Shown in pieces: positions 23,675 through 59,639 of a stretch of DNA of 64,000 nt. Below the pieces are notes generated by a model that was not told the origin of the DNA, made no database searches, and saw only the letters and a program-made list of their open reading frames with translations. The DNA is taken from contig NW_026250404.1 in the NCBI RefSeq assembly GCF_024521635.1, positions 124,001 to 188,000 on the forward strand, given 5' to 3'. The translations under genes were made by a program, and so were the position numbers. Source of the DNA: Tricharina praecox (Eukaryota). How positions within the stretch are numbered: position 1 is the first letter of the stretch; each line of letters opens with the position of its first letter.

Positions 23675-24849
23675 GTATAAACTTGATTATATTAAGGGGG
23701 TTGCTTATCAAATTTGGGCTGTACTCGAACGGATGGGAATGTAGGATGGAATGTTATGCAAGTTTTCTCGACGCAAAGCGGTACATGAAAAATCACTCAT
23801 TTAGCAGCCTTCTGAAGTGATGGAATTGAGAGAGGAACTTGACTTGATTGATGTATTGATACGAGGAAGAAGCGAAAGAAGACTGTTTATAAAGGAAAAC
23901 GAGCTCGTGTAGACGACGAGAAGGTCGGGCCTCAGACAGAGGATGCGACGAGAGTCGTCGCCGGACTGGGCTGGGGGCTTGAAGGCTTTCAGCTGACGAG
24001 GCTGATTACGATGAGAAGCCACAGACAAAGCCACGAAGGAAATGAGGGCAGCATGCAAAGAACAGTGGAAATTAGCATGACTCCGGAACAGGTAATAAGA
24101 CGCATAATATCAACATGAAGCTCGGATCTGGAACGTCCTAGAAGAAGCTTCTATATGAAGCCAACAGTCTCTTTCCGGCAGCTTTATTCGGACCCACTTT
24201 TAGGGCTCCCACACAGACTTTCGCTCGTATCTGCGACACAGGTGGCTATGGGAATATATATGAAAGCACTGGATGTCATTACATCCTGAAAATCATGTGC
24301 AGACATCGCCTTCGTACTCTTTCATCGGATCCTTTGCCTGGATAACATCAGCACGAATCCCAGACAAGATCGATAGAAAAGCGGATTGGTCATCTTGACC
24401 ACCAATGCGTAGCCCCTCGTCCGGCATGGCTTGTTAGATACCACACAATGATGCGCTGTTGGTGATAATCACGGGTGGTGATAGAGGTATGCCACTGTTA
24501 AAGGCCAGCGAAAGCAGAGGATCGTCGTGAAGTTTGACTACATCGCGGTGTCGTATCAAGCAAGTCAGCGCCGCTGGTAAAGGAGGATTGTACAGATCCG
24601 AGTTCATGTGGTCAAGTTCTTCGATACAGTCTAGTTATACGCTTGCGAAGGGATATCAGAGGCATAATTATGTAAGGTGGTCATCGTGGTGTAACAACTG
24701 CTACGCCACGAATCTTGGAAGTTGCACCGACATGCAGCTGCGGGGCAGCATTCGCTCAGCTCCACTTCGTAACAGGCAACCGCCAACAGCCTGGTAGACG
24801 CCATCTGTGCACACCGAATCTTTCCTGTCGACCAGAAGCCAATTCTCGG

Positions 24850-26581
24850 ATGGAACCCATTTCGCTCGTAACGGTAGTCCCGGGGCTATTGAAAATCTGT
24901 GCAGAGTTCATCGCGTTCATCTCCACCGCGGTCGATGCACCTAGCACTGCGCGTGACGTGGTCGCTGAAGTTCAGGCGATGCTCGGCATCTTCCGGCTGC
25001 TGAACAATTTCATAGTCCATTTCGACGAACAAAGCGTGGACCAGAAGTCTAGAATCCGTGCCGACGATCTGCTCTTCGTTTTGACGGACTGCGTATGCAC
25101 TTTCTCCAAACTCGACAAGGTGCTCGGAAGCCTCAAGACCGACGTTGACAATCCGAAGTCCACGTTCAGCGCCTGGGACCGGCTCAAGTGGGCGGCGAAA
25201 GACGGGGATATCGCGAAGATATTACAGCGCTTTCAAAGCCAAAAAACATCTCTGAATACTTTATTGTCGGTTCATACATGGTTAGTTTAGAGACCCCTTT
25301 CAGTGTACTTTGTACGGACGTCCAAAAGACGATCAACCCGCTGCCCTTCCTAACCGTGCTCCGGCGTGCCTATGAAATAGTTGCTGATAGCGTAGCTCGT
25401 CAGCTCTGCAAGCGCAGCGCGAGAGGGCGGAAATGAATGCTTCCAAAACGACATTTTTGCAGGAAAACCCGCATATCGCGAATCGCATGGCACCAGCCAC
25501 TTCCTTTGAGGATAACGCCGACGTATTCTCTGTCCGCTCCAGAACTGTGATTCACACCGCAGCATCCGGGGGAGCGGATACCTCGCCCGGAGATAATGAC
25601 GACGTATCCTCTGTTAGTTCTAAATCTTCAGCCCTCTCCACCAGATCTGAAAGATTCTCTCATAGATTCTCAATCGAGTTTGAGCGGTCTCTAGTTCAAA
25701 GTCGGGTCTACAGAAACGCGTCCAGAAACTCGTCAAACGGCTCGTTCATGAGCAATCAAACATCGGATTCAAGATGGTCTCATCTCACCGGACTGAGCAT
25801 GACCCAGATATCAACCATATCGGTCGTCTGTCTTCCAGTATACAGTTCCGAGCTGAGCAACGGCCATATGTACCAACAGGATCGGGTGATACCTGGTGGC
25901 AATGTCACGGGTGGCGGTCTCGCAGTAGCTCAACTTCAACGGCTGCGGATGGGAGGCGTCAGACCCACCACCACAATTCGGCATGGCTTGACGCCCGTGA
26001 GCGAACGGGGCGATCTTTTACATGTTGCGGCTGGCAAGGGTGACAACGTCGGTGTCGATATGCTGGTGAAAACGCTGGGTATTGATATAGAATCGCGAGA
26101 CACTAAAGGCTATACGGCGCTGCATCGCGCGGTCCTTGAGGGGAAGAGTGCTAACGTCCAACTACTACTCGACTGCGGTGCCAACATCGAGGCTGAGGAC
26201 GAAAAAGATAGCACTTCGCTTCACCAGGCCGCCAAAGGCGGACGTACAGAAATTGTGCAACTACTGCTCGACCGCGGTGCCAATATCGAGGCCACACAAA
26301 GGGACGGAACTTCGCTTCACTAGGCGGCCAGAGCCGGGCATATACACACTGTGCAGCTACTGCTCGACCGTGATGCCAACATCGAGGCCAAGGAAGTGGA
26401 CGGTGGGACCCCGCTGCACAAGGCGGCCGAAGGCGGACATACGGGCACCGCGCAGTTACTTCTTGACCGCCGTGCCAAAATCGATACTGCGGACACCGAG
26501 GGAAACACGGCACTCTTCCTGGCGGTCAGGTATTAGCATAAAGGCATGGCACGAATGCTCCGTAAATGAGGAGCCACATAG
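24850..26581 (+). pseudogene. HeLo-like/fungal STAND N-terminal domain + Ser-rich linker + about 6 ankyrin repeats; in-frame stops at 26321, 26534 and 26567; intron 25281-25395
   Basis: MEPISLVTVVPGLL..DAPSTARDV..WDRLKWAAKD..LQRFQSQKTSLN resembles HeLo-like N-terminal domains. Ankyrin consensus (LH.AA..G...VQLLLD.GANIEA) continues in frame across the TAG. Confidence 0.75.
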
Positions 26582-27494
26582 GTTGGTGAGTTTACTGCCA
26601 CCCCTTTCCGACTCTCATCGGATTCTAAACATCGTTCTCAACGGAAATAGAATTAGCAGAAGTATATCAATAGGGAAATCGGGATGGAAAGTTTGACTAT
26701 CAGGGAGGGTTGGAAGTAGGGAGATGGATAGGAGAAGATGTCGATTCTCATTATTATCACTCGTCAGACCGCAGAACTTCTTTATAACCACGCTCATCGG
26801 ATTCAAGGCTCGATATCTCTTCTTACGACAGACTGAACTCCTTTTCATTGACTGCTATCTCTATAGTTCTCTAATATATGGGTGGTGGGAATTATTGGCC
26901 AAGAGAAAAGGGGAAGTTGGCCGTGCCTGTTACGGTTCCGTGTCCGCCAGACCGTGCAATGCATAGAAACTCGACCGGAACTTTTTGGCATGGGACTGCG
27001 TGGGGTCGGAATTGTATTATGATATGTACAGATCGGCAAGTCATGACGGTTCTGCAGGGTCGCTACTTACCATGAGGTGTTTCGGTAGCTTCATAAGGTC
27101 GGATACAGTATGAGGAAACAAAAATAAAAGCCGAAATAAAAACAAAACACTTCATTGGCACCCTATCGACCTAGCACAACCTGTTATTTATGATAGCATC
27201 AAGGGTTCTCTCCTCATCGGACGTCGAATTACAAATGTCTAGTGTCTCTGAGACGTGATCGTTTACTGAATGTGTAAAATTGTGATAGGTCTCAGTAGAT
27301 AATGGTCAGGATGAGAAACCCAATATTATTATAAGTGCAATATTTGCGTACATACGAATAGAGAGAAAGTAAAACAAAGCCACAGAGGTTATCCGCTCGG
27401 AAACGAAGAAAAGAAATGAGGAAAATAGCAACACAAAATTGGCAGACTCCAAAAACGAACGAACAGTATGGAAATGCAATTGAAATTACCCAGC

Positions 27495-32903: not shown

Positions 32904-35900
32904 CTAGCTAGATTCAAGCTGAGCATCCGAAATAAAATGACTCCCCCCCGCACACCTCCATCCATTTGATGTCTTTTGCCATTGGTATCCTGCCACACAA
33001 ACTCCCATCGCCCTCAACTTTTGCTGGACCTGCGCCTCCTGTTGCCTTCTCTTCTTCTCTAGTTCTCTAATCCTCTCCAGCTCCCTCGCCGCCTTCTCGC
33101 CTTCGATGCGAGCCCTTAGTTGCGTCAGCCTCAGGGTCTCCTGCTTCCGTTTGATCTCTTCAAGGGCTGCGTCATCCTTCGCCTTCAGTGCAGCTGCCTC
33201 CAGTCTCGCCAGCTCCTCAGCCACCCTCTTACGAACGGCCTCTTTAGCCGCCAGCGCTCGGAACTCAGCTTGCTTCTTCGCGATAGCCTCCTGCGCTTCT
33301 CGCAGCCGTTTTTCCTCGGCTGCCTTGCATGCCTGGAGTTCGTTCCAGACTGCGTCCGACACGCCGGGATCGCGCCCGTCGTCTTGCGGGGATGGCGGGA
33401 CCTCGGCGGCATCCTTTTGCTTCTGGGCGCGCGGCGGTGGGGGAGCTGTTGCTGTCCTCGGGGCTACGGATGGCGGAGGCGGCGCATCTAGCGGCGGCAG
33501 AGTCTGAGCAAACTTGGACGTTTCGAACTGCGGAGTCCGGTTTGCGGGGAGGTTTGCTCTTCCCCTCCGTTCTACCAGTAACTGTTTGACACACTCGAGC
33601 GCGGTCCGCGCAGATAGCTCGGGCGCGAACGCAGCGGACCCGGAGGACGATGGTGTCTTGTAGACGAAGCCGATCATTTTCTTGGCCAGCGTCTTCATGT
33701 CTCGGGCGTTTCCCCACGATGGCAGGACCGTGAGCTCACCGATGAGGCTCCGGAGCACGACATATCCGGGAGAATTCTGATCCTGCAGGAAATCCACGGT
33801 GATATTCTTCTTCCCGATGTCACTCGCCATGACCTGAAGGCAATGTTCTGGCGACAGATTGGTGAACTGAACTTCTTCCGGGAACCGGCTCGAGAGCCCG
33901 GAATTGACACTTAGCAGCCGGTTCATGTCGTCGTCATAACCTGCCAGGATTACGATCATCTTTCCCAGAAACTGTGGCTTCGTCAGAATATCGACAAGCT
34001 CATTGACGGCTTCCGTTGCAAAGTGTCCCTCTGCGAGGCGATAGGCTTCATCCACAAATAGCACCTGACCCAAGGCTTTCTCGAGCTGCTTTTTCGTCTT
34101 GGGACCGGTCTGCCCGACATATTGACCGATCAGATCCGTTGCCGAACATTCCACGACCTTGGCTGTCGATAGGAAACCCATGTCATAATATACCTGACCC
34201 ATTTTGCGAGCTGTCGTCGTCTTTCCGGTACCTATTGAAGGGGTTCAGTATGTTCCGGTAGAGTGTCATGGGGTCGCAGCAGTGGGACTAACCTGGGGGA
34301 CCCTTAAATATAAAGTTCGTCGGAATGAGCTCGTGCAGTGGGATTCCCTTAGCCTTGGCATTGATGGCTATTTGTTGATAGCCTTCGAGCTTAGCAACGA
34401 TGTCCTCGCAGCCTATGACGTCTTCAAACAGCTTCCTGCAATTCAGCGTGGCACTGGCGCCTCTGGCAAATTCGGGATCGAAATCCTCGGGCTCGAAGAC
34501 GACATCGAAGGCTCGCTCTGCTGGAGGCTTCTTGCTCTGCCGGGTTTGGAAATTCGTCTTCGCCTTGCTGAGCATGTTTTCCACCTCGCCGGCATTCCCG
34601 AAGTTGGGCCGCATGCTGCACCGATCGAGCAATTCACAGGCTACATCCTTTGCTTCTGGTGTGGCATCAAGACCTTGGTGCTTCAATTTTAGGTCCAAGA
34701 TTTCCCTCAGTTCAGCGTTCGTAAAGTCCAGGAAATGGAATGCGTCATCTATTGCGAAGCGACGCGCGAGACCCGGATTGACGTTCTGGAACATCGTATT
34801 CATCTGTTCTTCGTATCCTAGGAGGAGAACGCAGCGATCTTCTCCCGGTATCGATTGCACCTCGGCGACCAACGTGTCGATGACAGCGGTCTTGAACGGA
34901 TCACTCTGGTTTCCGACCCCACCCCCTCCTGAGTATAGGCTGTATGCTTCGTCGATCACAAGCACCTTCCCGACCGTTGTTACTAGTATCCCCTTGGTTT
35001 GGCTTTCGGAATGTCCTATGTATCCCCCGATGAAGTCCGATGGGTTCTTGACGACAACTGCATACTATTAGTGGTTTGAAAAAAGCCATCCAGAGATTGT
35101 GACCAACCTTCCCCGTTGCTGAGCATGCCCAAATCGTTCAACACCTGACCGTAGTACTTCGCCACAGTGGTTTTCCCGGTCCCAGGGGATCCGAGAAAAA
35201 CACGGTTGAGAGGAACCCGGATAGGCTCCTTTTCACTGAGCTCTCTCAAGTAGTTCGTATGGATCATATCGACCATCGACTGCACCGACTGCTTGACGGT
35301 TTGAAGACCTATCAACTCCTTCAGTTTGTTCCACGCCTCACTCTCCCCCAGGGCCTCCGCTGGGTTTGGTCCGATCAGATCTTCCCTTGTGAAAAAGAAG
35401 TCGTCTGATATCTTTCCATCTCGAGTCTCTCGGGTCAAGCGAACTCCCTGCCTCTCCCTGATCTTGGCGAAGACATTTGCAAGGCCTCTGGCATTCCCGA
35501 ATCCGTTTCGGCCTCGGCCTCTTCCCAGGCGCCGGACCACGATCCGCATGTAGAGGCCGCCCATGCCCTCCTCCACCTTCATTCTACCGCCGTACCATTT
35601 GTCGATCATCTTTCGCAACATCAGGTGGAGTTCGGGATCCTTGTAGTCTTCGAACTTCAGTGTGTACGGGATTCGACTTGGGATTCCCGGATTGTGCTCG
35701 AAGAACTACGAGTACATCACTTGGTGTAAGCATAACCCCGTAGCATGATAGCATGGTGCAGTTGTAACTTACAGACTCCATTTCTTTCGTGTAGCCGGCG
35801 AACAGGAAGACGATCTTTCCCACATTGTTCTCGATCTCCGCAAGCAGGAAATCGAGGACTTGGGCTCCGCCGGTGCTCTGCTTCTCGGTGAGCTGGTAAG

Positions 35901-38900
35901 CTTCGTCAAGAAAGACAGCACCGCCCCCGGCTTTCTGAATGTCGTCGATAATTTTCTTCGCCCCGGGTACGCCGTCGTTGGCCAAACGAGAGCCAGTAGT
36001 CTCCACAAATTCGCTCCCCGGCAAAACGCCCTGGTATGTATTCAAGAATTCGGCATATAGACGTGCCACGGTTGTTTTACCTACAGATTGTTGTCAGAAA
36101 TTCGTCACCAAAAGATGGATACGATTTCATACCAGTGCCGGGATTGCCTAGCATCACCACTCCAAAACGCTCATTCTTGAAATCGACATTTTGACGGAGA
36201 GAAACGTCAATCTTTGCCTATTTTTTTTCCGGAGGGGGAACAGTCAGCGATCGAAACATGACCTGCTCACGCCTTGGGAATACCTTGATATTCAAGACCT
36301 GCTCCTTGACATTCTCCAGTCCGGTCATGTCCATGAGCGTATCCAAGGCCTTGTTGTTGGCATTTTCGAAAGCTTTCTGCCGTCGCCATTCTTTCTCCGA
36401 ATCTGAGGGTTCGAGCACTGGATCTGGAACCAGTTTGCGCGGTCTGGCATGTGGTTTGGCCGTAGCTGGTGGTACGGCGGCGGGAGTAGTGCTGGTTGAA
36501 GGATTGGTTGGAGGCGTGTTCGTGCTTGGATCCAAGGGTGCTAGAGGGGGTACGCGTGGGGGCTGCTGAGTTGCAGGATCCTGTGGAGACGAGGGCAACG
36601 TGGGCTGCTGTGGGGGAGGGATGGGTGCCCGACGTGCAGCGATAGCAGCGAAGGCAGCGTTCTGCAGATCCCGTTTCTTCTGCTCGATAGCATTTTCCCT
36701 TGCTATGCGGTCCTGTTCGTCTTTCATCTCTTGTCTCTTCCGTTCGATCTCTTCGTCGAGAAGTACCAACTGCCGGAGGTGTTCCTTCTGTGCCGCTTCG
36801 CGTTGCTGTTGCAGCTCGAAATCTCTCTGTTGCCTCTTTTCAGCAGCCAGCCGCTCGCGTTCACATTTTTCACACACGACCGGCGGCCCTTTGTGACACT
36901 TCCATCGGTACGGGTGGCCTTGATCGCACTTCGCGTGCGTAACGAATTCACAAGGCATCTTTGAATGATCCGAAAGCTGATGACAGTGTTGAGGGCACTT
37001 ATGCACTCCACAGCTGAGGATAGTTCCGCTAGAATTCTGGTTAGAACCATGCCTTTGAATAGGATAAAGGGAATCCTTACCATGGTTCTGTACACCCACC
37101 GTCGGGACACTCGTCGTCAAAGTCTTGAGGCTTGCGGAGGAACGTTTTCCTGTCCGGGTGCCGCTCACATTTTGCGGGAAGTCCGTCGTGAATGAATCCA
37201 CCTACCTTCAGAAGATCGAAGAACCTGGTCCACATTTCCTTACCCTTGCGGGCATGGAGGAAGGTTTCCGGGTTGCTGAATGTGAAAGTTAGCATTTACT
37301 TTTGTTTCCATACTGCACCAAGGACGTACATACCCAATCAGTATGAGACCGTTTTGCGCCCGAGACAAAAGAACGTTCAACCTCTCCGGAGCAGACATAA
37401 AGCCAATGTCGTTGTCGTCATTGCTCCTTGTGAGGGAGGCAATTACGATCTCGCTCTCCTCGCCTTGATAGTTATCTAAGAACAATCAGCCTTTGAACCC
37501 AAGTTGTTTCAATACTCGACATAGCCGAAGGTAGGTTCCCGTACCGATGGACGAAATCTTTATAGGGTTCTTGGTGACGTGAGCACTGGCAGCCGGTAAC
37601 AATCTATCCGACAGTCAGAAATTTCGTCACACGGTGTTTCTGCAGTCGTGAACTTACCCAGCGCGGACCAGATCATAAGAGTCAAGATCGTTGAGGACGG
37701 GATCGTTGTCTTTGCTCAACTTTTCTCGAAGCAGTTGTAGCTGCCCAAGATATGGCGTCAAAACCACGATTTTGTCCGTGCCATATCCCTGCTGCCCAAG
37801 GTATCGAACGGATTTCAAAACCATTTCAGCCTCGAATGTGTTTTGTTTGGAGGATTTGTACGTCAGTCCGTCCTTATCTCCTAGTCGGGGATTATGGTCT
37901 TCTGGCTTGTCATGGCTGACAAAGATCAGATTGCCATTATGGAATCCTCGAATGTCTGGCCGTTGCTGAGTCCCAGGTCCGTCGATGAGGTCCGGATAAG
38001 TTAGAGTTCTGATGAGTGAGGATATTTCCGGTCGCATGCGATGCTGCATGGTAAGAGTCTGATGGGGAAACCCCTTCATGACGAGACGCTCGAATAAGGA
38101 TCTATTGAGATCGTATCCGTCACCTTTCTCGACTGTTAGCTGATAATTGCTCACCTTTGGCCGTAGTTGTTTGTGGTCGCCGATCAGGATCAACTGGTCG
38201 GTCTTAAACCCCAAAGCAGTGAGGATATGACTCTCCAGTATCTCTCCCGCCTCTTCCTATTAAATAGTTATTCAATGAAACTGGCTTCGAATGGTGGTGT
38301 TTTAATTCTTACCACTAGAAGCACGTCTGCATTCGCTGCCTGTAATTCCTCATACTTCATAGCTGCAGCACTCGTCGTACACCCGATGATACGTTTCTCC
38401 CGTAGGACTGTGGCATCCTTCAATCTGTACATGCGGCTGATTTTGTTCTGGCATTCGTTATACTCTTGGGCGAGAGCACTGATGTCATGTGCCTGTTCTC
38501 TGGACAGTGTCGTCGTCCATCGCTGGTATATAGCCTCCCGGTCTGGGTATGGCTTTTCCCAGATCCCCCGCGTTTCTTGGGTGACATTCCATCTGAAAAT
38601 TCCAGCATCCAATCCCCTAAGCCATCGATCAAGTAGGTAATATTCATCCACGGCCTTGCCTTTTTTGCTTACCGTTACCATTCCATCGTCGTTGGAAGGC
38701 ACAGTGAACGCCCCGAACCAGTCCGGTCCATCGTCATCAAGGAACTCTAGATGAGTCATGAACTGGTGAAATTGGTTCGGAGCGGAAATATATTGTTGGA
38801 AGTCCTGTTTCAGCTGCATATCCAGACGACGTGCCTCCGATTTGAGTTGGTCAATGACCTTGTAGGTTTCCCGGGGAAGACCTCTGCCGCCGGCACCTTG

Positions 38901-40641
38901 GAGAACAAGAGGCTTCGTCCTGGCAGTCGACTTGGCTCCGAGGCGCACCATACTTGACGCAGGAATTCCGATATCAAGCAGATCCTCCAAGAACTGATCG
39001 AGGGCGTGATTTGTATAACACACCACGAGGATCGTCTTGTCGGTGGAGTCATGGATAATCTTGGCAAGCAAAGCTCCGATGAAAGACTTGCCGGTACCTG
39101 CAGAGAATCAATTAGTAGGCGAATAGACAGTGGGGCCCGCGTGGGATGAACTTGCCTGGCGGTCCTTGGATAAGACTGACTCTCTGCCTCAATGCTGTAA
39201 GTAGAGACACGCACTGAGACTTGTCCAGTCTAATTTCTTTCGGCGATTTGATTTTGAGAAGCCCGCGCAAATCTTGGGACGGGTTGGTTTCAATCTCCCG
39301 AATGCGCGCGTCGGGAACTGACGAAGGTTGCTCGACATTAGTTCCTTCGGTCCATGACAGCAGCTCGTCGCTCAGCTCCATTTCCTTGATGCCTTGTAAG
39401 CGGATAAGAATCGGCTCATATGCGAAGACCGCAGTGTTGATCTGAACCAACTTGATAACACGCCCGGTCTTGAGCTTGAGAAATGCGTTATGCATGTTCT
39501 GGTTACTAGAGAACTGTAGCAATAGTATCGGTAGTTTGGCGGCAAGGAGGTCTTCGTCGCGGTTGATGCATGGGAATGCCACTACTTCGTTATCGACGAT
39601 CAAGCAGGTTTGAGAAAGATGCTTCATGAAAGTTTTGTTCGTGATTAGGAACTTCTTCCGCTTCGCCGGCTCCTTGTGCTTGCCGAGTTGGGGGAGATCC
39701 TTCGCGCACTGAAGTTTGAGGCCCCATGGTTGTTGGCGAGCAGGATTGCATTCGATTCCGAGTATCTTGAAGCCTTCGAGAATCATCCCGCGATGGGGTT
39801 TCTTCTTGATTCCAAGGGCAATCTGCAGCTCCTCGCGCATCTCCGCAACCATGTCTTCCCGTAAAAGTCGAAATTGGTTGTCCAGATGGATTCCGAGACG
39901 CACCCCATCGTCACACGCCTCCTCCATAGCCTTGGCCGTCCGCATGAAGGGCTTCTCTTCGGTTCTGAACTCGTCTGCAGTTGGCATGATGGTGATTTTC
40001 CGAAAGTCGGGGAAATCATTGTCATGACGCCCTCCCGGACCGCCGTATCCGTCGAAGGTGAGTGGAGTCGCCGTGGTGGTCGAAACGATGTGTTTGATCC
40101 TGTGGCCGAGGTTGCGGACTTCCAAGTGAGGAGAATTCAACAGGCGTTCCTGCAGGGCATCCTCTTGAGCGAGCTCATTATACTGCGCGGCCTTTTCCTT
40201 CTGAAGAGACACGAGCTCAAGGAGTAGCCAAGCAAAACATTGTTGCGCCTGTCGCTCCAGTTTATCGTCTTTGTATGCGCGTACGAAGCAATCCCAGAAA
40301 ATCGGCGGGTCTACCATCTTCGAGAGGACCTGGTGTAGGAGATCGCCTCCCATGATGGTCTTGAGGTCTGGATTCTGTAGATATTTGAGGGTCAAGGCTG
40401 CCGGCCCGTTCAAGAAGGTCGGATCTGTTCTGAAGCGCATACATTGCTGAACAGTAGGAAGAGCCCCAGCTATGAGCCTCTGAATACAATCTGCTGGGTC
40501 CTGCACCCTGATCGATTCCAAAAAAAGGTTGCCCTGTGTAGAAGTCGATACCGGCTTTTTACCTGTTACAACCTGATTGAAAAGAACGTCGAGTTTGGCC
40601 TTTCGTTTGGCGTCGTTAGGGTCCCCAGAGGACGCAGACAT
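32904..40641 (-). CDS. ZNFX1/UPF1-like SF1 helicase + NF-X1-like Cys/His region + coiled coil + three CbbX/SpoVK-type AAA+ domains + C-terminal Cys/His motif; 12 exons, about 2,350 aa
   Basis: Helicase motifs GGRHDND, IQGPPG|TGKS, YTNHALDQ, VEEAGE, IGDHKQLRP, SLFERL, QHRM, DNYQGEE, NVLLSRA. Three AAA modules with GNPGTGKT, GSPGTGKT, GPPGTGKT and DEAY Walker B motifs. I found no disabling stop after splicing. Confidence 0.92.
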
Positions 40642-41339
40642 CTCTCACGATGTCAAAAGATGTAAATTCTGGGAAATGAGGGGTAGAGGATGTTTCGTGC
40701 GAGTGAGGTGAGACAGCGTTGGGAGCCAAAAAGAGAATGCAGAAAAGCGGATGTTCGGACGAAGTAGAGGGCGAGACAGAGGACGAGACAGAGGGTGATT
40801 TTCAAAGGCAACTCAATGGGGGCGGCAAGAGTATCTAGACTTCCGGCGGGTGGAAGAAGAGGGGTTGTAGAAAGACGGAGAAGATATGAGGATGCCGGTA
40901 TTCTAGAACGTGCAGGCTGCAGCACCGTGTTTGGACGTTTGGGGCTCGCCGGTTGAAGCATCATATATCACGTCACTGCGCCGCATGCGCTATGGTTGGC
41001 CGTGTAAGGAGCAGTGTCGTCCATGGTGTTCTCTCTCTAGCAATGTCGTCCATAGAACAGCGGCGATAGGTGTGAATGTACGTTGTGACCGTCGAGGCCC
41101 ATCACTAAGACGTTCGCATCCTGCCACAACAATTCAGACTCTAGAGAACTCCTCCGAATCTTCGGTATTGTCCCGCAGCACATAACTGCCCCCTCAGCCT
41201 CCAGGTCTTGAGAATCCAGACACCTGTGTCCAGCACACCTTCCCATTCACATATCGTTAGCGCTTTCTTCCATGCGCACTGACGCGTGCATTCCTTGTGC
41301 TCGGCAGCGTGGCCCCCACGATGCGAACAGGGTCGCGGT

Positions 41340-44940: not shown

Positions 44941-47900
44941 TTATGTGGTAGCGCCTGCTGTACATAGCCGTTCCACTATCTCAAGATGGCCTCCCTTCGA
45001 TGCTGCTTGTAGCGCTGTTCTTCCAAGAAATTCAGCTGGCTCTGCGTTGACATTGGCCCCCTTCTCCAAAAGTCGATTCACCAGCTCAAGATGGCCTCCC
45101 TCCGATGCTGCTTGTAGCGCTGTTCTTCCATCGCCACGTGCTGGCTCTGCGTTGACATTGGCCCCCTTCTCCAAAAGTCGATTCACCAGCTCAAGATGGC
45201 CTCCCTCCGATGCTGCTTGTAGCGCTGTTCTTCCATGAAATTCAGCTGGCTCTGCGTTGACATTGGCCCCGTTCTCCAAAAGTCGATTCACCAGCTCAAG
45301 ATGGCCTCCCTCCGATGCTGCTTGTAGCGCTGTTCTTCCATTCCTCCATGTTGGCTCTGCGTTGACATTGGCCCCGTTCTCCAAAAGTCGATTCACTATC
45401 TCAAGATGGCCTCCCTCCGATGCTGCTTGTAGCGCTGTTCTTCCATTGCCCCATGTTGGCTCTGCGTTGACATTGGCCCCCTTCTCCAAAAGTCGATTCA
45501 CCAGCTCAAGATGGCCTCCCTCCGATGCTGCTTGTAGCGCTGTTCTTCCATCCGATTCAGCTGGCTCTGCGTTGACATTGGCCCCCTTCTCCCAAAGTCG
45601 ATTCACCAGCTCAAGATGGCCTCCCTCCGATGCTGCTTGTAGCGCTGTTCTTCCATCGCTACGTGCTGGCTCTGCGTTGACATTGGCCCCCTTCTCCAAA
45701 AGTCGATTCACCAGCTCAAGATGGCCTCCCTCCGATGCTGCTTGTAGCGCTGTTCTTCCATCCGATTCAGCTGGCTCTGCGTTGACATTGGCCCCCTTCT
45801 CCAAAAGTCGATTCACCAGCTCAAGATGGCCTCCCTCCGATGCTGCTTGTAGCGCTGTTCTTCCATCCCACACAGCTGGCTCTGCGTTGACATTGGCCCC
45901 GTTCTCCAAAAGTCGATTCACCAGCTCAAGATGGCCTCCCTCCGATGCTGCTTGTAGCGCTGTTCTTCCATCCCACACAGCTGGCTCTGCGTTGACATTG
46001 GCCCCGTTCTCCAAAAGTCGATTCACCAGCTCAAGATGGCCTCCCTCCGATGCTGCTTGTAGCGCTGTTCTTCCATCGCGACGTGCTGGCTCTGCGTTGA
46101 CATTGGCCCCCTTCTCCAACAGAATTTCCACGATATCCGTTTTGCCGGACGCCGCTGCGAATTGCAATCCCGTCCGCCCCGACCCGTTATCGCAGTTGAC
46201 GTCAACAATTCCATAATCTAGCAGGTGGCGGACGTTTACAGCATCTCTTGAAAGGATTGCATCATAGAAGGCATTTATGTACCTCGCGTCCACGGCCGAG
46301 GGAGAGATTTGGTTTTCTTCATCAAGAATTTTCGCCTTGTTGCTGGAAACTAGTAGTCGTAGTCGTTTCAGGACGTTCAGCATGGCTTCAAGTAAACCCT
46401 TCGCCAAATCTTTCCCTGGTTGCCGAAGGTACTTCAGCAAAACCACCGCCATCATAACGGCAGCAAACACTGGCACTGCAATGTAGAAATAGGTCGTCCA
46501 GCGAGGGTTGTCCTTAAGCGCGTCCACATTCATTCCGTACAAACTCTAATAGGTACTTAGTAAGCAACTCTCAAAGTTTCGAAACGCAAGGTATCTTACC
46601 GCGACGAATAGTAACGGTAGAAAGATAAACTAAGAGGATTTGTGGTCAGTTACTACTAGACTAGGGATTGTTACGGTGGAGGAATGTACCGTGATCCAAG
46701 AAAGCCTCTTGACGCTGTAATTCTGCTCTCGGGCCTTGCATGCCTCGTCGATGGAGACGATATTGGATGCCTAAGCATAGGACTGTTAGATTTCACACTG
46801 GAAAAGAGAAATTTCCACTAGGATACCCTTTGAAGCAAGACATCGATTCTTCTAATCAACCCTTCTTCTAAGGTTTTGCCGACACCTGCAAGCCGCTGCT
46901 TTGCTTTTACTAGATCGGTGCTGACCTCGTTGTCTCGCTTGGGTACCTTGCCCTCTTGACTCGAGCGCTTCCGTGGAACTCTTGATGTCGCCCACCCCGG
47001 ATGTGAGGTCATCCGTACAGCCCTATAGTAACTTCCGTAGGGATATCTAGGGCGGGGGCGTTGGTTGGAATGAGGCGGCTTGTCCTGACTCTTCAGGTCG
47101 GCGTCGTCATTTTCTTCCTCGTCCTCACTCCCCAGGCGTTGATTCCACTTCACATCACTGATCTGATGCAAGGCCTCAATGCTCTGAATTTGTTCGCGCT
47201 GCGCAGCTTCCAGTCGGGAGGCTACGTCGGCGACGGAGACCAAGGACCGTATGAATTGTCGGTAATTCAATTCCTGATCACCCATTATTTTCCTGCTCTA
47301 AAAACTATGAGTCTCATACTCTGGTATCATAGGATTGAGAAAACATACTGCGTCAGACAATAATTGCTTATAGCAGTTGATCAGCTTCTCCCAATCTCCA
47401 CACACATCGTTTAAGCAAGAAGCTAGAATTGATGCAGGTGTGGTGTTAGGTATAGATTGATTGTCGGTATTCTTCCAGAGGTGGTTGAAGTAATACTTTC
47501 GGCCGGATTTGTCGGTCAGGAAGAAGAAGGCGAGGCGCTTCCGGCGGACAAACGTGTGGCTTCTCATCGTCAGCTTCTCGTGTTAGGGTTATTGATCACA
47601 AACGCACATCGCAGTATCAGTATACAGCGTTACCGTCTCATCCGTGGACGCGATCTGCGCCGTTTCGACGTCCTCAAGTACTTGTGGCCTCTCTCGGATG
47701 CCCACCTCTTCGTAAGTTGGAATTTGCACCCAGAAACCGCGTGCTGTTCAGTCAGTGATGTCCACAAACAAACACTCCAAGCCGCAGTCATTTATCACGT
47801 ACCGCAACGGGGTTTGAGATCGCCTGGGCATCTTTTGCAGCCACATTTTTCGGCATTCCCGATACATTCATTACAATCACATGAGGAGCTCTTGAGGTAA

Positions 47901-48315
47901 CCCGAACAATCTTTGCATTCACATGAAGAGCCTTGGCACGTCGCCTTTAATCCGGAAGAATCGCCTGTTTCGGGGACATTCACTAAGCCTGGAGCCAGAG
48001 GTGCGCGGGACGAGCTGCACAACCCGGCGTATCGGGAATACAGAAGGGCTAACAGTTTTGCCGAGAGCTCCTGGGTGAAGCTATCTTGAATGAGAATGTG
48101 GATACACACTTGACACTAGTCGAGGAGATACAAACTTGAAGAGAACTGGTTTATCTTTCTAAATGGGTATTAGCAATGGCGGCTGGGGCGACAGCCACTC
48201 GATCTCCACCTACCGTCGTGTCGACCTTATGTAGCGCATCTCGTAGATCTGCTTCGGTACAGATCTTATCGAAATCATCTCCTAGCCACACCTCCATGAC
48301 AACCGGATTGGACAT
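44941..48315 (-). CDS. CorA-like membrane protein (2 TM, GMN motif) fused to a C-terminal array of highly conserved ankyrin repeats; 9 exons, about 975 aa
   Basis: Approximate exons 48315-48214, 48158-48136, 48080-47803, 47743-47634, 47576-47349, 47297-46827, 46770-46690, 46629-46600, 46545-44941 splice in frame. SVKRLSWIT|FIFLPLLFVA|SLYGMNV..FYIAVPVFAAVMMAVVLL is the CorA C-terminal signature. The two 5' exons are less certain. Confidence 0.85.
44975..46120 (-). repeat. Coding tandem array of 105-bp ankyrin units (11 variable windows)
   Basis: About 93 nt nearly invariant + 12 nt variable per unit; variable windows start at 45025 and recur every 105 nt to 46075. Confidence 0.97.
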
Positions 48316-48419
48316 TTCGAAAGGCTTTGCCGGGTAGTGTAGGTGTAAGTGACGGAGCGCGAGGACCGGTGTTGAGCGATGACAGTTCTTCGAACGCGAC
48401 AATTGATGCGGGCTTCGAG

Positions 48420-48491
48420 TTCGTAGGGTACGTGAGATCCGACGGGCGGGCAAGATTCGTAAGGTACGTGAGATCCGACGGGCGTGCGAAA
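48420..48491. repeat. 2 x 36-bp tandem duplication upstream of the CorA-ankyrin start codon
   Basis: TTCGTA(G/A)GGTACGTGAGATCCGACGGGCG... occurs twice in tandem. Confidence 0.85.
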
Positions 48492-49824
48492 TTCGTGGTG
48501 AAGTTACGCTGTGACGAGAAGATGGGAAAGTCGGGCAAAGCGGAGATACTCCAGCCGCCACACAGATTATGTGCTTCTTGGCTTTGCCAGTTGTCGGATG
48601 GTGATTGGGATTGGAGTCCCCGCTGAAGTGAGACATACGTGCTGCAGGCCGGTTGGGAACTGGCGTTTGCCTGATGGTGGAGCAACAGCCGCGGTCATCG
48701 TGGCATTGCGAGTAGATACAGAACTCTGAAGGGACGTTTATTTGCTTCCGGCATGTGAGATGTTGATAGAGTAAGTACTTGTTCGAAGGATGTTGGGAGA
48801 AGAGAGGTGACTTTACGTCGTAGAGCGTCCTCGTTCCTGAAGGGCCCATACGCAGCCCTGCATGCGTATGGTTTGGGACACTTTGAGCCGACACTAACTA
48901 AGGGCCTGTTCGGTCGCCAGCTGCATTTTCAAACCTTGGGTTTTCTGACGAGTTGACGCTTACTAAAGCTGAAGCTGCAAATTCTCGTCTCCCCCAATGT
49001 CCCATTTGGCAACCCAGATATTTAACAGCACGCCACACTGTTTATTTGTATTGTGGCTCAGTCGAAAATATGCAGTTTTTCAAATTGTTAACTTGGGGTG
49101 GTGTGCCGAACGCTCACCCATCGCCCGGAAACTGAGGGTTTCAAACTGCATCTAAAGTTTATGTGGTAAATTTGAAATGCAGCTGTGTTTATCATTTGAG
49201 AGCGTAAACTGAAAATATGGGCCCGTCGACACAAGTTGTGATGGTGAATGCCGAACGACAAGGGCGCGACAATATACCGAGAGAAGGGACCAAGACCCAA
49301 ATCCAGCCTCGGTGGGTGCAGAATAGGAAAGTACTATACTAGGCGAGTATTTTGCATTCTTCAAACTTATTGTACCTATATGTAATCCAACCGCAACGTT
49401 CACCAGCTCTCGGAAACTACACTTCACCACGAGGCCTCAGCTAATGGAAAATATTTATTTTTCTTTTCTCAGTCCTCGCGAAGGCGGAATGGGTACTTCA
49501 GATAATGGTGCACTTCGGGTAGTCGGGCTTCACGGATCGCCTCCCGCAACACCTCCAAGCTTCGGCCTCGAAATGTGAAGCGGTATTCAATGTCAAATAT
49601 GTGCCACCCGGGGGTTTCCAGTCTTGCCTGAACGACGCCGTGAGACTTAGCCGCGAAGGTCGGGATCGTTCGGCACGGCAATATTTCACGGATCATGTGA
49701 TTTCAAAAGTGGCCCCCAATTCTGGCCGCACTAGCACTACACACATACAAAAAGTCATATGGAGATGCCCGACTGGAAAGTCACTTCAAAGCACAATTAA
49801 TTCCTGATTTCCAACGCTCAACCT

Positions 49825-54736: not shown

Positions 54737-56109
54737 ATGTCGCCGCGCGATCCCATCGTCGAAGCGGGCTCTCCGGCAAAGGGCGAGAACGAAGTGGCAC
54801 CTTCGCCGGCGGGGGTGAGGAGGCACAGAACCCGTCAACAAACAGCCTCTATGTTTGTTCTCGCGACCCTATTTCTGGACGACGGTCCACCGCCCCCGCC
54901 TGCGAGGTGATCCAAGAGACACTTGGAGACGGCTGCCGCGAAACCCATCCCACCAAAGAAGCGGATGAAGGCTACCGGAAGCTCCGATGTGACTACCTCT
55001 AAGGTGCAGCGGCAATCGAAGAGCACAGCGGCACCGGTTAAGACCGAAACTCCAGCTGCAAAGACCCTGACTCGGGTTAACAACACTGCTCCGAAAGAAG
55101 TCGCTACTCGTCCTCGTTCGGCACGAGTCATCAAGGCCGCTGCATCGCATCTCAAGGCTGAAAGTGCTGCTTCGGGAGTAGCCACAGTCCGATCTCGTTC
55201 GGGACGGCCCATCAAGGTGCCCACTTCGTTGCAGCCCCAGGCTGACACTGTCGCTTCGGGGGTAGCCGATGCTCGTCCTCGTTCGGGACGGAACATCGAT
55301 ACCAGCTCAACCCGGAAAGCGCCTCGCGGGCAGCATGTCAAGGCCGTCCCGAGGAAGCCAGTGGCCTTACCAGAGCCAGAGATCGAATGCGCGATCTGTT
55401 TGGAGTCCATGCGGCCGGCGAACTTTCCGGCGAAGCTGACTTCCACCTGCAACCACTCGCCCACTAGTTGCGGCGACTGCGTGCGCAACCTCCTTACCGA
55501 GGCTTTCGCCGGCAAGGAATGGGTTCTCCCAGCGTGTCCGGATTGCTCTGCCGAGTTCACGTCCAGCGAAATTCGGCTCCTCGGCACCGCCGAACAGGCG
55601 GAGACATTCGAGTGGCGGTTGACGAGCCAGTTTCTGCGAACACTGGAGGAGTACCGCAGCTGCCTCGATCCCGAGTGCGACGCGGGGCAGATCCACGCGG
55701 GCGGCGACGACACGCCCATCGTCACCTGCGACGCCTGCGGGTTCCAGCAGTGCTACTCGCACAACATGCCGTGGCATGCGGACCTGACGTGCGCGCAGTA
55801 CGATGAGCGCGAGCACCACCAGCGGCTCGAGGAGAACAAAGCCTCCGAAGAACTGGTGAAGCAAACTGCGCAGCGCTGCCCCGGTTGCAGCATCACCGTC
55901 ACGAAGATCGATGGCTGCGATCATATGACGTGCCAACGATGCAAGACCGGCTTCTGCTACCTGTGCGTGGCGTTGTACGCCGGGAAAAACGGGTATATCA
56001 CGTGGGAAACGGTGCCCACAAAGAATCGTGTCCGTACTACGCCCGGTACGACCCTCACGCCCGATATGACCCTCACACCGGGCACGATCGCACCCACGAC
56101 CGCAACTAG
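54737..56109 (+). pseudogene. RBR (RING-IBR-RING) E3 ligase paralogue with an in-frame TGA at 54908 and a -1 frameshift near 55990
   Basis: CAIC..CNH..CGDC..CPDC RING1, IBR, CPGC..DGCDHMTC RING2. The homologous tail VYHVGNGAHKESCPYY lies in the -1 frame. A protein could still start at ATG 54965. Confidence 0.7.
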
Positions 56110-56554
56110 TAACAGCGCCACGGTCATATAACGCTCTCGTATGCGTATATAAACCTGGGGCAGGAGGCGTACTCGGGGGACGACGTTCGAAGACAGCTGC
56201 GTGCTGAGACATATGGGATGGATGGTGGCTAGAAGGAGGAATTGCGGGCGGGCTTCAAATAAGCTTTAGTCCAGTATCTCGGTGTTAACTATCATTAGCT
56301 GTGAGACAATTGCGTTTATTTCCATACATATCGTTTGTTTCTTGTATGTACCCGGTCGTGGCGGCCGGCAGTTCCTTATTACTTCATTCATCTTGTTTAC
56401 GATATCTCCTAGGCTAGTTATTTTCACCTTGCATACTCTGCTCTACTCTAGGCCACTTATTGTTATCTCACCTGCTTCATTAATTCCCACACGCCGCGAC
56501 GATACCAGTCGCGGATAAGAACCTTCAAGTTGGATAAGAGTCAAGACCACATTC

Positions 56555-57262: not shown

Positions 57263-58511
57263 TTATTTTCAGTGTTCGGTGGTGGATGAGGTGAGAATGG
57301 GGATGAGGATGAGGGTGAGGATGAAGATGGGGAGAAAGATGAGAAGGAGGTATGAGGAAGGAAGGAAGGGTATCGTGATTAACGGGCTCCTGGAGAGTTT
57401 GCTATTCCCATAGTAGCTTCGACGACTCGAAAGTAAAATCGATAGAGTTCGGGCCAGGCTATTGGTTTGGCTTCGGCCCGTCGTAGGTTGATTACACAAA
57501 ACGATATTGATGGTCTCGGCGTGGCGAGACCCACAGTGAGAGTTCGGGTTTCTTTTTTGGCTTCCTTTTTTTTCTGTTTCAGTTTTACGTTTGTTGGTTC
57601 ATCTATTACTGTCATCGTCCATCGCGATTCGCGAGCCCACGGCCCGAGTATGTAAGCAACTATTGCGAGTGACATCGATGATGGTGAGGATCCACGGTGC
57701 ATGCACCGATGATCATCTTGATATTGATGTTGGTATTATGTATCAGCTAGCCGGTTCGACGCAGCCAAGGAACGAGCTGGATGCAGCTGCAGCTCGCCAT
57801 AGATAGGATCGCCGATGCGGAAGGGAAAGTCCAACCAACCCCACGCGGAGCTTTCCGGTTCGAATACGGGTATCGTAGGTAGGGAGTTGTGTGCGGAATA
57901 GCGTACCTAGAGGCTGCCGGAATCTCCGTATCGCAAAGCTGGATTTCCATCCGGGGGGTTGTCTCGTTGGAGGATGTTCGTTGAAGTGCGGGGTACCGAC
58001 TAGCAGAAGCTTATCCGTATCGTAGGTAACTAAGGACCAACGGCAGTAGTGGGTGCGCACTCGTAGGTTAGCGTCGAGCACCCGTTTGCGCACTTTCCAC
58101 GCCACGCCAGGCCCACAATCTCGCCTACATACGGTGGTTGTGGATGTAAGTTCAGCCGTTGGTAGAGAAACAGCCAACACAGCACACACACATACACACC
58201 AACCACAGCCTTGACGCATCCAGCCGATGGGGCCGCCACCGCCATTGGACGGATGCTTTTGTTTGTGCAGAAAGGAAAAGCCCCAACTCTACTCGATGAA
58301 TCCCGCAAGTGGCTGGTCGATTACTGAGGGGTGTGTGGATGTGTGTGGGTTGCACTGTGCCCCCGCTCTTGCTGGAGCTTCCCCTCCGCCTGTGTTTATT
58401 ATGACCATACCAGCTCTCTGCGCTCGCGCAATCCTTCCTGTCCGCGGATCTCGCACATACCGCTCGCTCTTCTCCGACTCCGGATCCCACCACACGGCGC
58501 CGAGCTGAAAC

Positions 58512-59639
58512 ATGTACGCTGCTACTAATCCCAACGGATTCTGGGAGCACCTGTTTCCCGGGGCTGCCGGTGTCCCTCACACTTTCCCGCGCGATGTCCC
58601 TCACTGGCCGCCGGCGCCGGGCCCACCCGCTGCCAAAGCGTTCCCGGAAACGTTCACACCGCGCTACTCGCACCGCTCCATCTCTCCCAAGCTATGCGTC
58701 GGCTGCGGCGACTTCGCACCCATCTACTTCCACGAGACGCCCGGTCTCTCAATCCTCGCACGGCGCGTGCACCAGCGCTGCTATATCTGCCTGACGTGCA
58801 TCCAGTCACGGATCTCTGGCACAGTATCCGGCACATGGGTGCGCTGCCCCGGCTCCCTCTGCAGCCGCGAGCTCAGCAACGCCGACATCCGCATCCTCTT
58901 CCGCGCGAACGAGCACGGCGAGAGCCGCGACATGCCACTACCCTCACCCGGCACACTCTTCCCGGCCACACACGCGCCCGTCAAGTGCTGCACCTGCCTC
59001 GAGACCGACCCATCAGGCGGCTTCGCCCCCCGGCTAACCGACAACTGCCGACACCACCCCACACTCTGCTTTGGGTGTCTGCGGGCGATGCTCTCGCACG
59101 CGCTCGACGGGAAGGCATGGGTTGATCCCGCGTGCCCGGACTGTCGACAGCCGCTCTCGGCCGCAGACGTAAAGCGCTTCGGCACCGCGACGCAGATGAA
59201 AACGTTTGCGGACCGCGCGGCGCGCCGCTTCCTGCAGGATAATCCCGACTGGCTGATGTGTCCCAACGGCTGGTGCGGGCAGCTGCAGAAACATGAGGGC
59301 GGAGCCGCTCGCCCCTGGCTGCAGTGTCTCGCTTGCGGATCGTTCATGTGCTTCAACCATCGCGACGAGCCGTATCATGCCGGACTGTCGTGCGCGGAGG
59401 TGGATGATGCGAGGAATAGGGTCATGCAGGAGGGCATACAAATGAGCGAGGAACTGGTCCGCAGCATCTCAAAGGTTTGCCCGAACTGCCAGTTCGATAT
59501 CCATAAAACTGGCGGATGCGAACATATGACCTGCGGAAAGTGTAAGTACGAGTTCTGCTTCCTGTGTCTGGCGTCGTACGAAAAGATTAGAGCCATTGGG
59601 AACACGGCGCATGTGAGGTCCTGTGCGCATTATGCATGA
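58512..59639 (+). CDS. RBR E3 ubiquitin ligase with an extra N-terminal RING-like module (intact, single exon)
   Basis: RING1 CCTC..CRH..CFGC..CPDC, IBR CPNGWC..CLAC..CFNH..H..C, RING2 CPNC..GGCEHMTC..C..FCFLC. Confidence 0.9.
   Translation: MYAATNPNGFWEHLFPGAAGVPHTFPRDVPHWPPAPGPPAAKAFPETFTPRYSHRSISPKLCVGCGDFAPIYFHETPGLSILARRVHQRCYICLTCIQSRISGTVSGTWVRCPGSLCSRELSNADIRILFRANEHGESRDMPLPSPGTLFPATHAPVKCCTCLETDPSGGFAPRLTDNCRHHPTLCFGCLRAMLSHALDGKAWVDPACPDCRQPLSAADVKRFGTATQMKTFADRAARRFLQDNPDWLMCPNGWCGQLQKHEGGAARPWLQCLACGSFMCFNHRDEPYHAGLSCAEVDDARNRVMQEGIQMSEELVRSISKVCPNCQFDIHKTGGCEHMTCGKCKYEFCFLCLASYEKIRAIGNTAHVRSCAHYA

Follow-up and report, generated by a model that had tools for sequence, protein, structure and literature searches.

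A CorA-type membrane module fused to a tip-variable ankyrin array in Tricharina praecox, a candidate ligand-sensing channel

Non-self recognition in fungi is mostly explained by nucleotide-binding oligomerisation domain (NOD)-like receptors (NLRs) with HET, HeLo, patatin and similar effectors. CorA subunits have both termini in the cytoplasm, and canonical members of this family stop a few residues past the second of their two transmembrane helices (TM1 and TM2). TRPA and TRPN channels carry N-terminal ankyrin arrays, and ACD6-type proteins carry a PGG domain. Here we analyse a gene of the filamentous ascomycete Tricharina praecox in which a CorA-type module is followed by near-identical ankyrin units whose variation is concentrated in their last four codons. 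It occupies positions 44941-48315 on the minus strand of a stretch of 64,000 nucleotides (positions 124,001 to 188,000 of contig NW_026250404.1; hereafter, the window), and is an intact, spliced gene for a two-pass membrane protein of the CorA fold. The architecture it represents, a CorA module with conserved, tip-variable ankyrins and no NOD, is present in sequence databases and appears to be undescribed in the literature searched: no publication on CorA with ankyrins, or on CorA with NACHT, in fungi was found in a search whose coverage mostly leaves out subscription journals.

The protein shares with the CorA/Mrs2/Alr1 family (PF01544; structures 4I0U and 3JCF of T. maritima CorA, and 8Q8P for CtMrs2) the TM1-GMN-TM2 order after a stalk helix and a helical cytoplasmic domain, but differs from canonical CorA in the ~490 residues that follow TM2 (a linker and 13 ankyrin units), in a divergent N-domain and in a Cys-rich insert. 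With the ankyrin (ANK), TPR and WD repeats of fungal NLRs it has in common near-identical units that vary at a few surface codons. In the accessible text of Dyrka et al. (2014; PMC4986451), such repeats are defined by a high internal conservation (HiC) criterion of >85% identity across a minimum of 100 amino acids (aa), and the positively selected sites of the ANK repeats lie on the concave face and in the hairpin region. The repeat period is 35 aa here versus 33-34 aa for the NLR ANK repeats of that account (PMC4986451), and the T. praecox protein differs from the HiC NLRs in having neither NACHT/NB-ARC nor a known N-terminal effector, its repeats being carried on a membrane channel module. 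It thus has the C-terminal, internally conserved array of an NLR but not the central P-loop nucleoside triphosphatase (NTPase).

Three further systems resemble the gene in logic rather than in build. Type III CRISPR systems use CorA-family effectors that are activated by SAM-AMP (PMC10600005 and PMC12255297, in their accessible parts); compared by description, these share with our case a CorA-fold membrane protein as a ligand-activated defence effector, but they are bacterial, sense a small nucleotide signal at a soluble domain and, in those parts, have no repeat array. The wheat ankyrin-transmembrane (ANK-TM) protein Lr14a is, in the accessible account, channel-like and gives race-specific resistance without an NLR. 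Lr14a/ACD6 and TRPA/TRPN join an ankyrin array to a cation-channel-like membrane domain, a likeness of logic and not of descent. They have N-terminal ankyrins and multi-pass membrane domains with no relation to CorA; in the T. praecox protein the ankyrins follow the membrane module, and Pfam reported no membrane family besides CorA. In the Pezizomycete Morchella importuna, bulk segregant analysis ties vegetative incompatibility to two genes, one of which, mimpvic32, is CorA-like and has eight introns, a product of 765-773 aa and two alleles of 92.6% identity whose differences are mostly C-terminal (PMC8940278, accessible text). Like our gene, mimpvic32 is an eight-intron Pezizomycete gene for a CorA-like (PF01544) protein, a likeness drawn from the published description and the Pfam family, not from sequence.

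A preliminary description of the window, made from its letters, had proposed nine in-frame exons and about 975 aa, a count that public contigs now fix at nine exons and 978 aa. Contigs were aligned to positions 46100-48400. One contig from each of two runs (X2 and X3, from two studies and of a type guessed to be RNA) skips eight stretches and otherwise has no letter that differs from the window. All eight, 48-60 nucleotides (nt) long, have GT..AG borders on the gene strand (CT..AC on the plus strand), and such intron-less contigs with exact GT..AG joints show splicing at these sites, whether the contig is cDNA or a processed copy. An unspliced form of ~99% identity occurs in a soil-metagenome run (X1). 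The joins are in frame and give 978 codons plus the stop (translation checked); the start codon is also kept in a metagenome orthologue, L001, in which an upstream stop excludes any earlier Met. The coding region and its exons, in coding order, are as follows.

44941-48315, minus strand: whole coding region, with ATG at 48315-48313, stop at 44943-44941, and eight joints (8 of 8 GT..AG) bridged by X2 and X3 contigs
48315-48214, minus strand: exon 1, aa 1-34 (spliced contigs)
48158-48136, minus strand: exon 2, aa 35-42, a micro-exon of 23 nt between two introns of 55 nt each (joints 48158>48214 and 48080>48136)
48080-47803, minus strand: exon 3, aa 42-135, including a Cys-rich cluster (spliced contigs)
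47743-47608, minus strand: exon 4, aa 135-180 (spliced contigs, joint 47559>47608)
47559-47349, minus strand: exon 5, aa 180-250, a section of the N-terminal cytoplasmic domain (aligns with residues 184-256 of the Pyronema omphalodes homologue P0001)
47297-46827, minus strand: exon 6, aa 251-407, helical cytoplasmic region, acidic/basic low-complexity insert and start of the stalk helix (spliced contigs)
46770-46690, minus strand: exon 7, aa 408-434, in which the stalk helix ends and TM1 starts (spliced contigs, hydropathy)
46629-46600, minus strand: exon 8, aa 435-444, middle of TM1 (FIFLPLLFVA; spliced contigs)
46545-44941, minus strand: exon 9, a single open frame with SLYGMNV, TM2, the linker and all ankyrin units

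A spliced contig runs uninterrupted from 5' of the ATG via TM1-GMN-TM2 and the linker to the first ankyrin units. Because GMN, TM2, the linker and the 13 ankyrin units share one exon, the CorA-ankyrin fusion is not a splicing artefact, and the idea that the CorA and ankyrin parts are separate genes fails on both this junction within a single exon and the unbroken contigs. A homology-guided model of eight exons and 979 aa (guide, P0001) was refuted by the spliced contigs: it had a single 98-nt intron in place of the 55-nt pair around the micro-exon, and misplaced the intron 47560-47607. The micro-exon, found through spliced contigs only, would be an easy miss for gene predictors. The spliced contigs also reach >400 nt past 48400, so that the leader may be long, and a 36-nt tandem repeat (2.1 copies) is present at 48420-48496, just 5' of the start codon.

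By hydropathy, the spliced product has only two segments with the hydrophobicity needed to span a membrane, at ~aa 430-447 and 460-484. The string RLSWITFIFLPLLFVASLYGMNV, which had been quoted as evidence for a TM1-GMN-TM2 module, is found at aa 429-451, across exons 7-9, with YGMN at aa 447-450. The protein therefore has the CorA hallmark of two transmembrane helices with GMN at the end of TM1, here ahead of an ankyrin C-terminus, and G, M and N are each at least 90% conserved in a 47-sequence family alignment. Between TM1 and the ankyrins lie:

46528-46536, minus strand: GMN motif at TM1's outer end, aa 448-450 (read directly from the sequence)
46426-46500, minus strand: TM2, aa 460-484 (hydropathy; the predicted helix is residues 16-39 of the exon-9 product)
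46285-46425, minus strand: cytoplasmic linker between TM2 and ankyrins, ~aa 485-531, partly helical (model; predicted local distance difference test (pLDDT) score <50 at residues 45-84 of the exon-9 product)

CorA-family membership, as had been claimed, is supported through the closest full-length homologues, P0004 (Arachnomyces sp.) and P0001. P0004 aligns with aa 28-737 of the spliced product (38% identity, E = 2e-125), with high-scoring phmmer matches at aa 372-545, and P0001 with aa 400-974 (54% identity), the N-terminal domain being 24% identical to that of P0001. Both match the PF01544 profile (Pfam; E = 3.5e-17 for P0004 and 2.4e-17 for P0001), residues 321-406 of P0001 match T. maritima CorA chains (E ~5e-6), and the first 560 aa of the spliced product score from ~60 to 211 bits against Pfam-verified CorA proteins in phmmer. 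An AlphaFold (AF2) model of residues 1-469 of P0004, built from the 47-sequence alignment, has helices at 220-255, 262-304, 320-388 and 401-446, mostly with pLDDT >85, in keeping with the helical bundle of CorA and its long stalk helix continuous with TM1. The equivalent of exon 6 consists of long helices (pLDDT 87-96), and residues 1-210, the alpha/beta N-domain, are modelled with low confidence. In a Foldseek search with this model, 24 of 24 among the matches listed were CorA, Mrs2 or CmaX (probability 1.00, TM-scores 0.21-0.42), at 13-18% identity to the solved CorA chains. The absence of a NACHT/NB-ARC P-loop, also noted beforehand, holds: no NTPase family was matched at E up to 1 in a Pfam scan of six reading frames (six of the nine exons), and no Walker A motif occurs in the 978-aa spliced product; P0001 and P0004 likewise lack one.

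The N-terminal cytoplasmic domain has 11 Cys within aa 90-134 (47938-47804, minus strand; exon 3). A Cys-rich insert recurs in the metagenome orthologue L001, and a weaker version in P0001 and P0004. This insert could be a metal-binding or redox site.

The preliminary description had also noted near-identical ankyrin repeats, in an array that it called hypervariable. The repeat region and its variable codons are:

44944-46284, minus strand: ankyrin domain of 13 helix pairs (Pfam Ank_2, E = 1e-132; AF2 pLDDT 81-98)
within it, minus strand: N-cap; degenerate unit from 46179; ten core 105-nt units at 46074-45025; C-cap at 45024-44944
45981-45970, 45876-45865, 45771-45760, 45666-45655 and 45561-45550, minus strand: hypervariable codons 32-35 of core units 1-5 (column variation)
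45456-45445, 45351-45340, 45246-45235, 45141-45130 and 45036-45025, minus strand: hypervariable codons 32-35 of core units 6-10 (column variation)

At 44980-46119 Tandem Repeats Finder detects a 105-nt repeat (10.9 copies, 93% matches), and across the first 93 nt of the ten core units DNA identity is 98.8%. Variation is confined almost wholly to the last four codons of the core unit, where 10 of 12 nt columns vary versus 4 of 93 elsewhere (Fisher p = 2e-9). In the AF2 model of the exon-9 product these codons, 32-35, map to the loop/beta-bridge just ahead of helix 1 of the next unit, that is, to the tip of the beta-hairpin. Entropy peaks at the same unit positions in P0001, P0003 and P0004, and L001, with seven units, has other residues at positions 32-35. 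Self-identity of the array at an offset of 35 is 96% over 140 aa, and with its surface variation the array falls within the HiC class of Dyrka et al. (>85% identity, at least 100 aa, surface variation); its variable hairpin tips lie in the part of the repeat to which those authors assign binding. Repeat-induced point mutation (RIP) was considered as the source of the repeat variation and rejected, because the few framework changes (CTG/ATA, TTG/TGG and AAG/AAC) are not C-to-T transitions.

We then surveyed how often a CorA module is joined to ankyrins. Run against the full library with phmmer, the CorA part of P0001 matched 466 proteins at E <=1e-3, from which 150 cluster representatives were Pfam-scanned; the counts that follow refer to these 150 nearest CorA-like representatives among the matches listed. 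Ankyrins accompany the CorA module in 46 of the 150, in three architectures:

CorA, then C-terminal ankyrins: 10 of 150, plus three fragments with a match to the transmembrane region followed by ankyrins
N-terminal ankyrins, then CorA: 25 of 150, plus one with ankyrins and a CorA match below the cut-off
NPHP3_N NACHT-type NTPase, usually a winged-helix domain (WHD), ankyrins and C-terminal CorA: 7 of 150

The order found in T. praecox is therefore not unique to it, being shared by at least ten cluster representatives, with sources that include Pyronema omphalodes, Peziza echinospora, Ascobolus immersus, Lineolata rhizophorae and Arachnomyces. In a tree of the module (~123 aa, 114 sequences, leaving out those with no [YFW]G[MI]N after a hydrophobic stretch or with too little flank), all ten CorA-then-ankyrin tips form one exclusive clade (support 0.97) that covers at least three classes of Pezizomycotina, and the other two ankyrin architectures share a second clade (56 tips, support 0.84). 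The T. praecox protein is a member of the monophyletic CorA-then-ankyrin family, which itself lies inside a broader CorA-like clade where ankyrin arrays, and at times NACHT-type NTPases, have been joined to the module repeatedly. Conserved repeats are a property of the window gene and of some relatives: in the nearest relatives with a 35-aa period, repeat self-identity is 49-76% when 140 aa are compared and 55-80% when 99 aa are, and high values recur in the ankyrin-then-CorA order in two Botrytis proteins (P0165, 93%; P0029, 91%) and one of Nemania (P0026, 75%). Nine other CorA-like proteins (P0044, P0076, P0080, P0084, P0091, P0095, P0123, P0133 and P0135) have 250-430 residues past GMN with no Pfam match; these may hold another type of C-terminal appendage, perhaps that of Morchella mimpvic32.

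The NTPase group comes from Colletotrichum, Podospora fimiseda, Apiospora and Xylariales, and sub-threshold NACHT matches overlap its NPHP3_N region. Its seven proteins, all from Sordariomycetes, are P0033 (Colletotrichum tamarilloi), P0037 (Podospora fimiseda), P0045 (Apiospora hydei), P0050 (Whalleya microplaca), P0052 (C. karsti), P0074 (Xylariaceae sp.) and P0141 (Apiospora aurea). Their CorA-like module, which is combined with ankyrins, is homologous to that of the window product (59-60 bits), but they differ in the reversed order NTPase-WHD-ANK-CorA, in clade and in repeats that are mostly ordinary (14-40% self-identity). This would be a membrane-embedded NLR architecture. The label 'NLR-independent', under which the T. 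praecox gene had been introduced, thus fits the protein itself, which has no NOD domain, but not the wider family, which includes these NLR architectures.

Sequence variation in the gene was seen in the soil variant of run X1, which has 14 differences from the window over 46318-48400, all of them exonic and 12 non-synonymous, and none in the five introns covered by its contig. With such small numbers, this excess of amino-acid changes is only suggestive, although it would point towards variable-ligand sensing. A metagenome scan found two loci of relatives (63% and 82% identity) and no allele of the window gene.

Taken together, the tip-restricted diversification, the recurrent ankyrin and NACHT fusions and the non-synonymous excess point to the sensing of a variable ligand rather than to Mg2+ uptake. 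We tentatively favour, at somewhat short of an even chance, a ligand-sensing cation channel that acts in defence, allorecognition or cell death and not in housekeeping Mg2+ uptake. Since both ends of a CorA subunit are cytoplasmic, the ankyrin solenoids must be cytoplasmic too, beside the regulatory funnel. The protein would assemble as a pentamer, as other CorA proteins do, with both ends in the cytoplasm and five ankyrin solenoids around the cytoplasmic funnel; the diversified hairpin tips would bind a variable protein ligand, either non-self or altered self; binding would alter how the gate-controlling cytoplasmic parts of CorA pack, and would thereby cause a cation flux; and this flux would be the signal for defence, allorecognition or cell death. 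A role in defence or allorecognition draws partial support from the 46 ankyrin fusions among the 150 representatives, seven of them with a NACHT-type NTPase, and from the polymorphic CorA-like candidate of Morchella, as far as its published description goes. The wider proposal, that CorA-fold pores make up a so far overlooked class of output domain acting at the membrane in fungal innate immunity or allorecognition, both within NACHT-WHD-ANK-CorA NLRs and in NOD-less one-component receptors such as this one, whose five rapidly diversifying solenoids would gate the pore directly once a non-self protein is bound, we regard as doubtful.

Several observations weigh against a sensor channel. The protein keeps GMN and what looks like a complete CorA cytoplasmic domain, which fits an ordinary regulated Mg2+ channel, and the ankyrin arrays of channels are often scaffolds or springs rather than variable receptors. 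In more distant CorA-ankyrin members the repeats are of the usual, divergent sort (12-27% self-identity), so that hypervariability is not family-wide, and the array itself is known from one genome, short-read contigs of other runs stopping inside it. Neighbouring genes in the window are of housekeeping type or unrelated. The assignment to CorA is indirect, passing through P0004 and P0001: the Pfam scan of the six reading frames gave ankyrin families only and no CorA, which we attribute to the introns that split the CorA domain. Finally, mimpvic32 is a mapping candidate only and is annotated, in the accessible text of PMC8940278, with a CorA-like domain alone and no ankyrin.

A first rival view is that the gene encodes an ordinary regulated channel for divalent cations (Mg2+/Co2+/Ni2+/Zn2+), in which the ankyrins are a scaffold that ties the channel to the cytoskeleton or docks a regulator, as in TRPA/TRPN or the plant K+ channel AKT1, and the repeats are nearly identical because unequal crossing-over expanded them recently. 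Besides the retained GMN, two transmembrane helices and helical cytoplasmic domain of CorA, this view accommodates the 11 Cys of aa 90-134 as a possible metal site, the ordinary ankyrin repeats of distant family members and splicing like that of any expressed gene. A neutral recent expansion, however, accounts neither for the contrast between the tip, with 10 of 12 columns variable, and the framework, with 89 of 93 identical, nor for the peak of variability at these four positions in the Pyronema, Arachnomyces and metagenome relatives. NACHT-type NTPase fusions within the same CorA clade would not be expected of a housekeeping transporter either. On balance we consider an ordinary channel unlikely.

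Less probable still is a non-conducting CorA-like module that serves as a pentamerising membrane anchor to display five ankyrin binders, with relocalisation as the output. The far C-terminal position of CorA in the NACHT-ANK-CorA relatives would suit an anchor, the weak SesA-like N-terminal match of P0045 could be an effector, and the family TM1 is largely hydrophobic in alignment with T. maritima CorA, whose T305, which we take to be a pore-lining position, lies opposite L in the window family. Against this, G, M and N are nearly invariant across the 47 family members, which argues for selection on the pore mouth. That the gene is in decay or under relaxed constraint, its array an unstable tandem repeat with no specific function, is very improbable: the 12 non-synonymous changes among 14 differences from the metagenome variant and the low N-terminal identity to P0001 (24%) would agree with it, but the 978-codon frame is intact and correctly spliced over nine exons, the repeat framework and transmembrane module are strongly conserved, and the family clade extends across at least three classes of Pezizomycotina.

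If the sensor-channel reading is true, a channel module coupled to a rapidly evolving binder would, whether or not a NOD is present, add direct ion flux as an output route and define a further class of candidate incompatibility or defence genes. It would also be a eukaryotic counterpart of the type III CRISPR CorA effectors and of the plant ANK-TM resistance proteins (Lr14a/ACD6), and would tie together fungal, bacterial and plant cases of channel-based immunity. If the array is a scaffold only, the gene would still be a clean case of concerted evolution with tip-restricted diversification outside NLRs. The family is tractable in either case, with one chain, GMN as an obvious knock-out point, a swappable array and existing Mg2+-transport mutants.

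Elsewhere in the window, AAA plus AAA_lid_6 ATPase frames and a large AAA_11/AAA_12 (Upf1-like) helicase gene lie side by side at 32904-35705 and 36218-40644, both on the minus strand, and have no evident link to the CorA-ankyrin gene. A second ankyrin gene, at 24676-26696 on the plus strand, has ordinary divergent repeats (32-39% identity to the P0001 repeats) and no CorA match. Two adjoining genes of the IBR/RING-between-RING type, at 54911-56131 and 58509-59639, both on the plus strand, appear to be a tandem duplicate.

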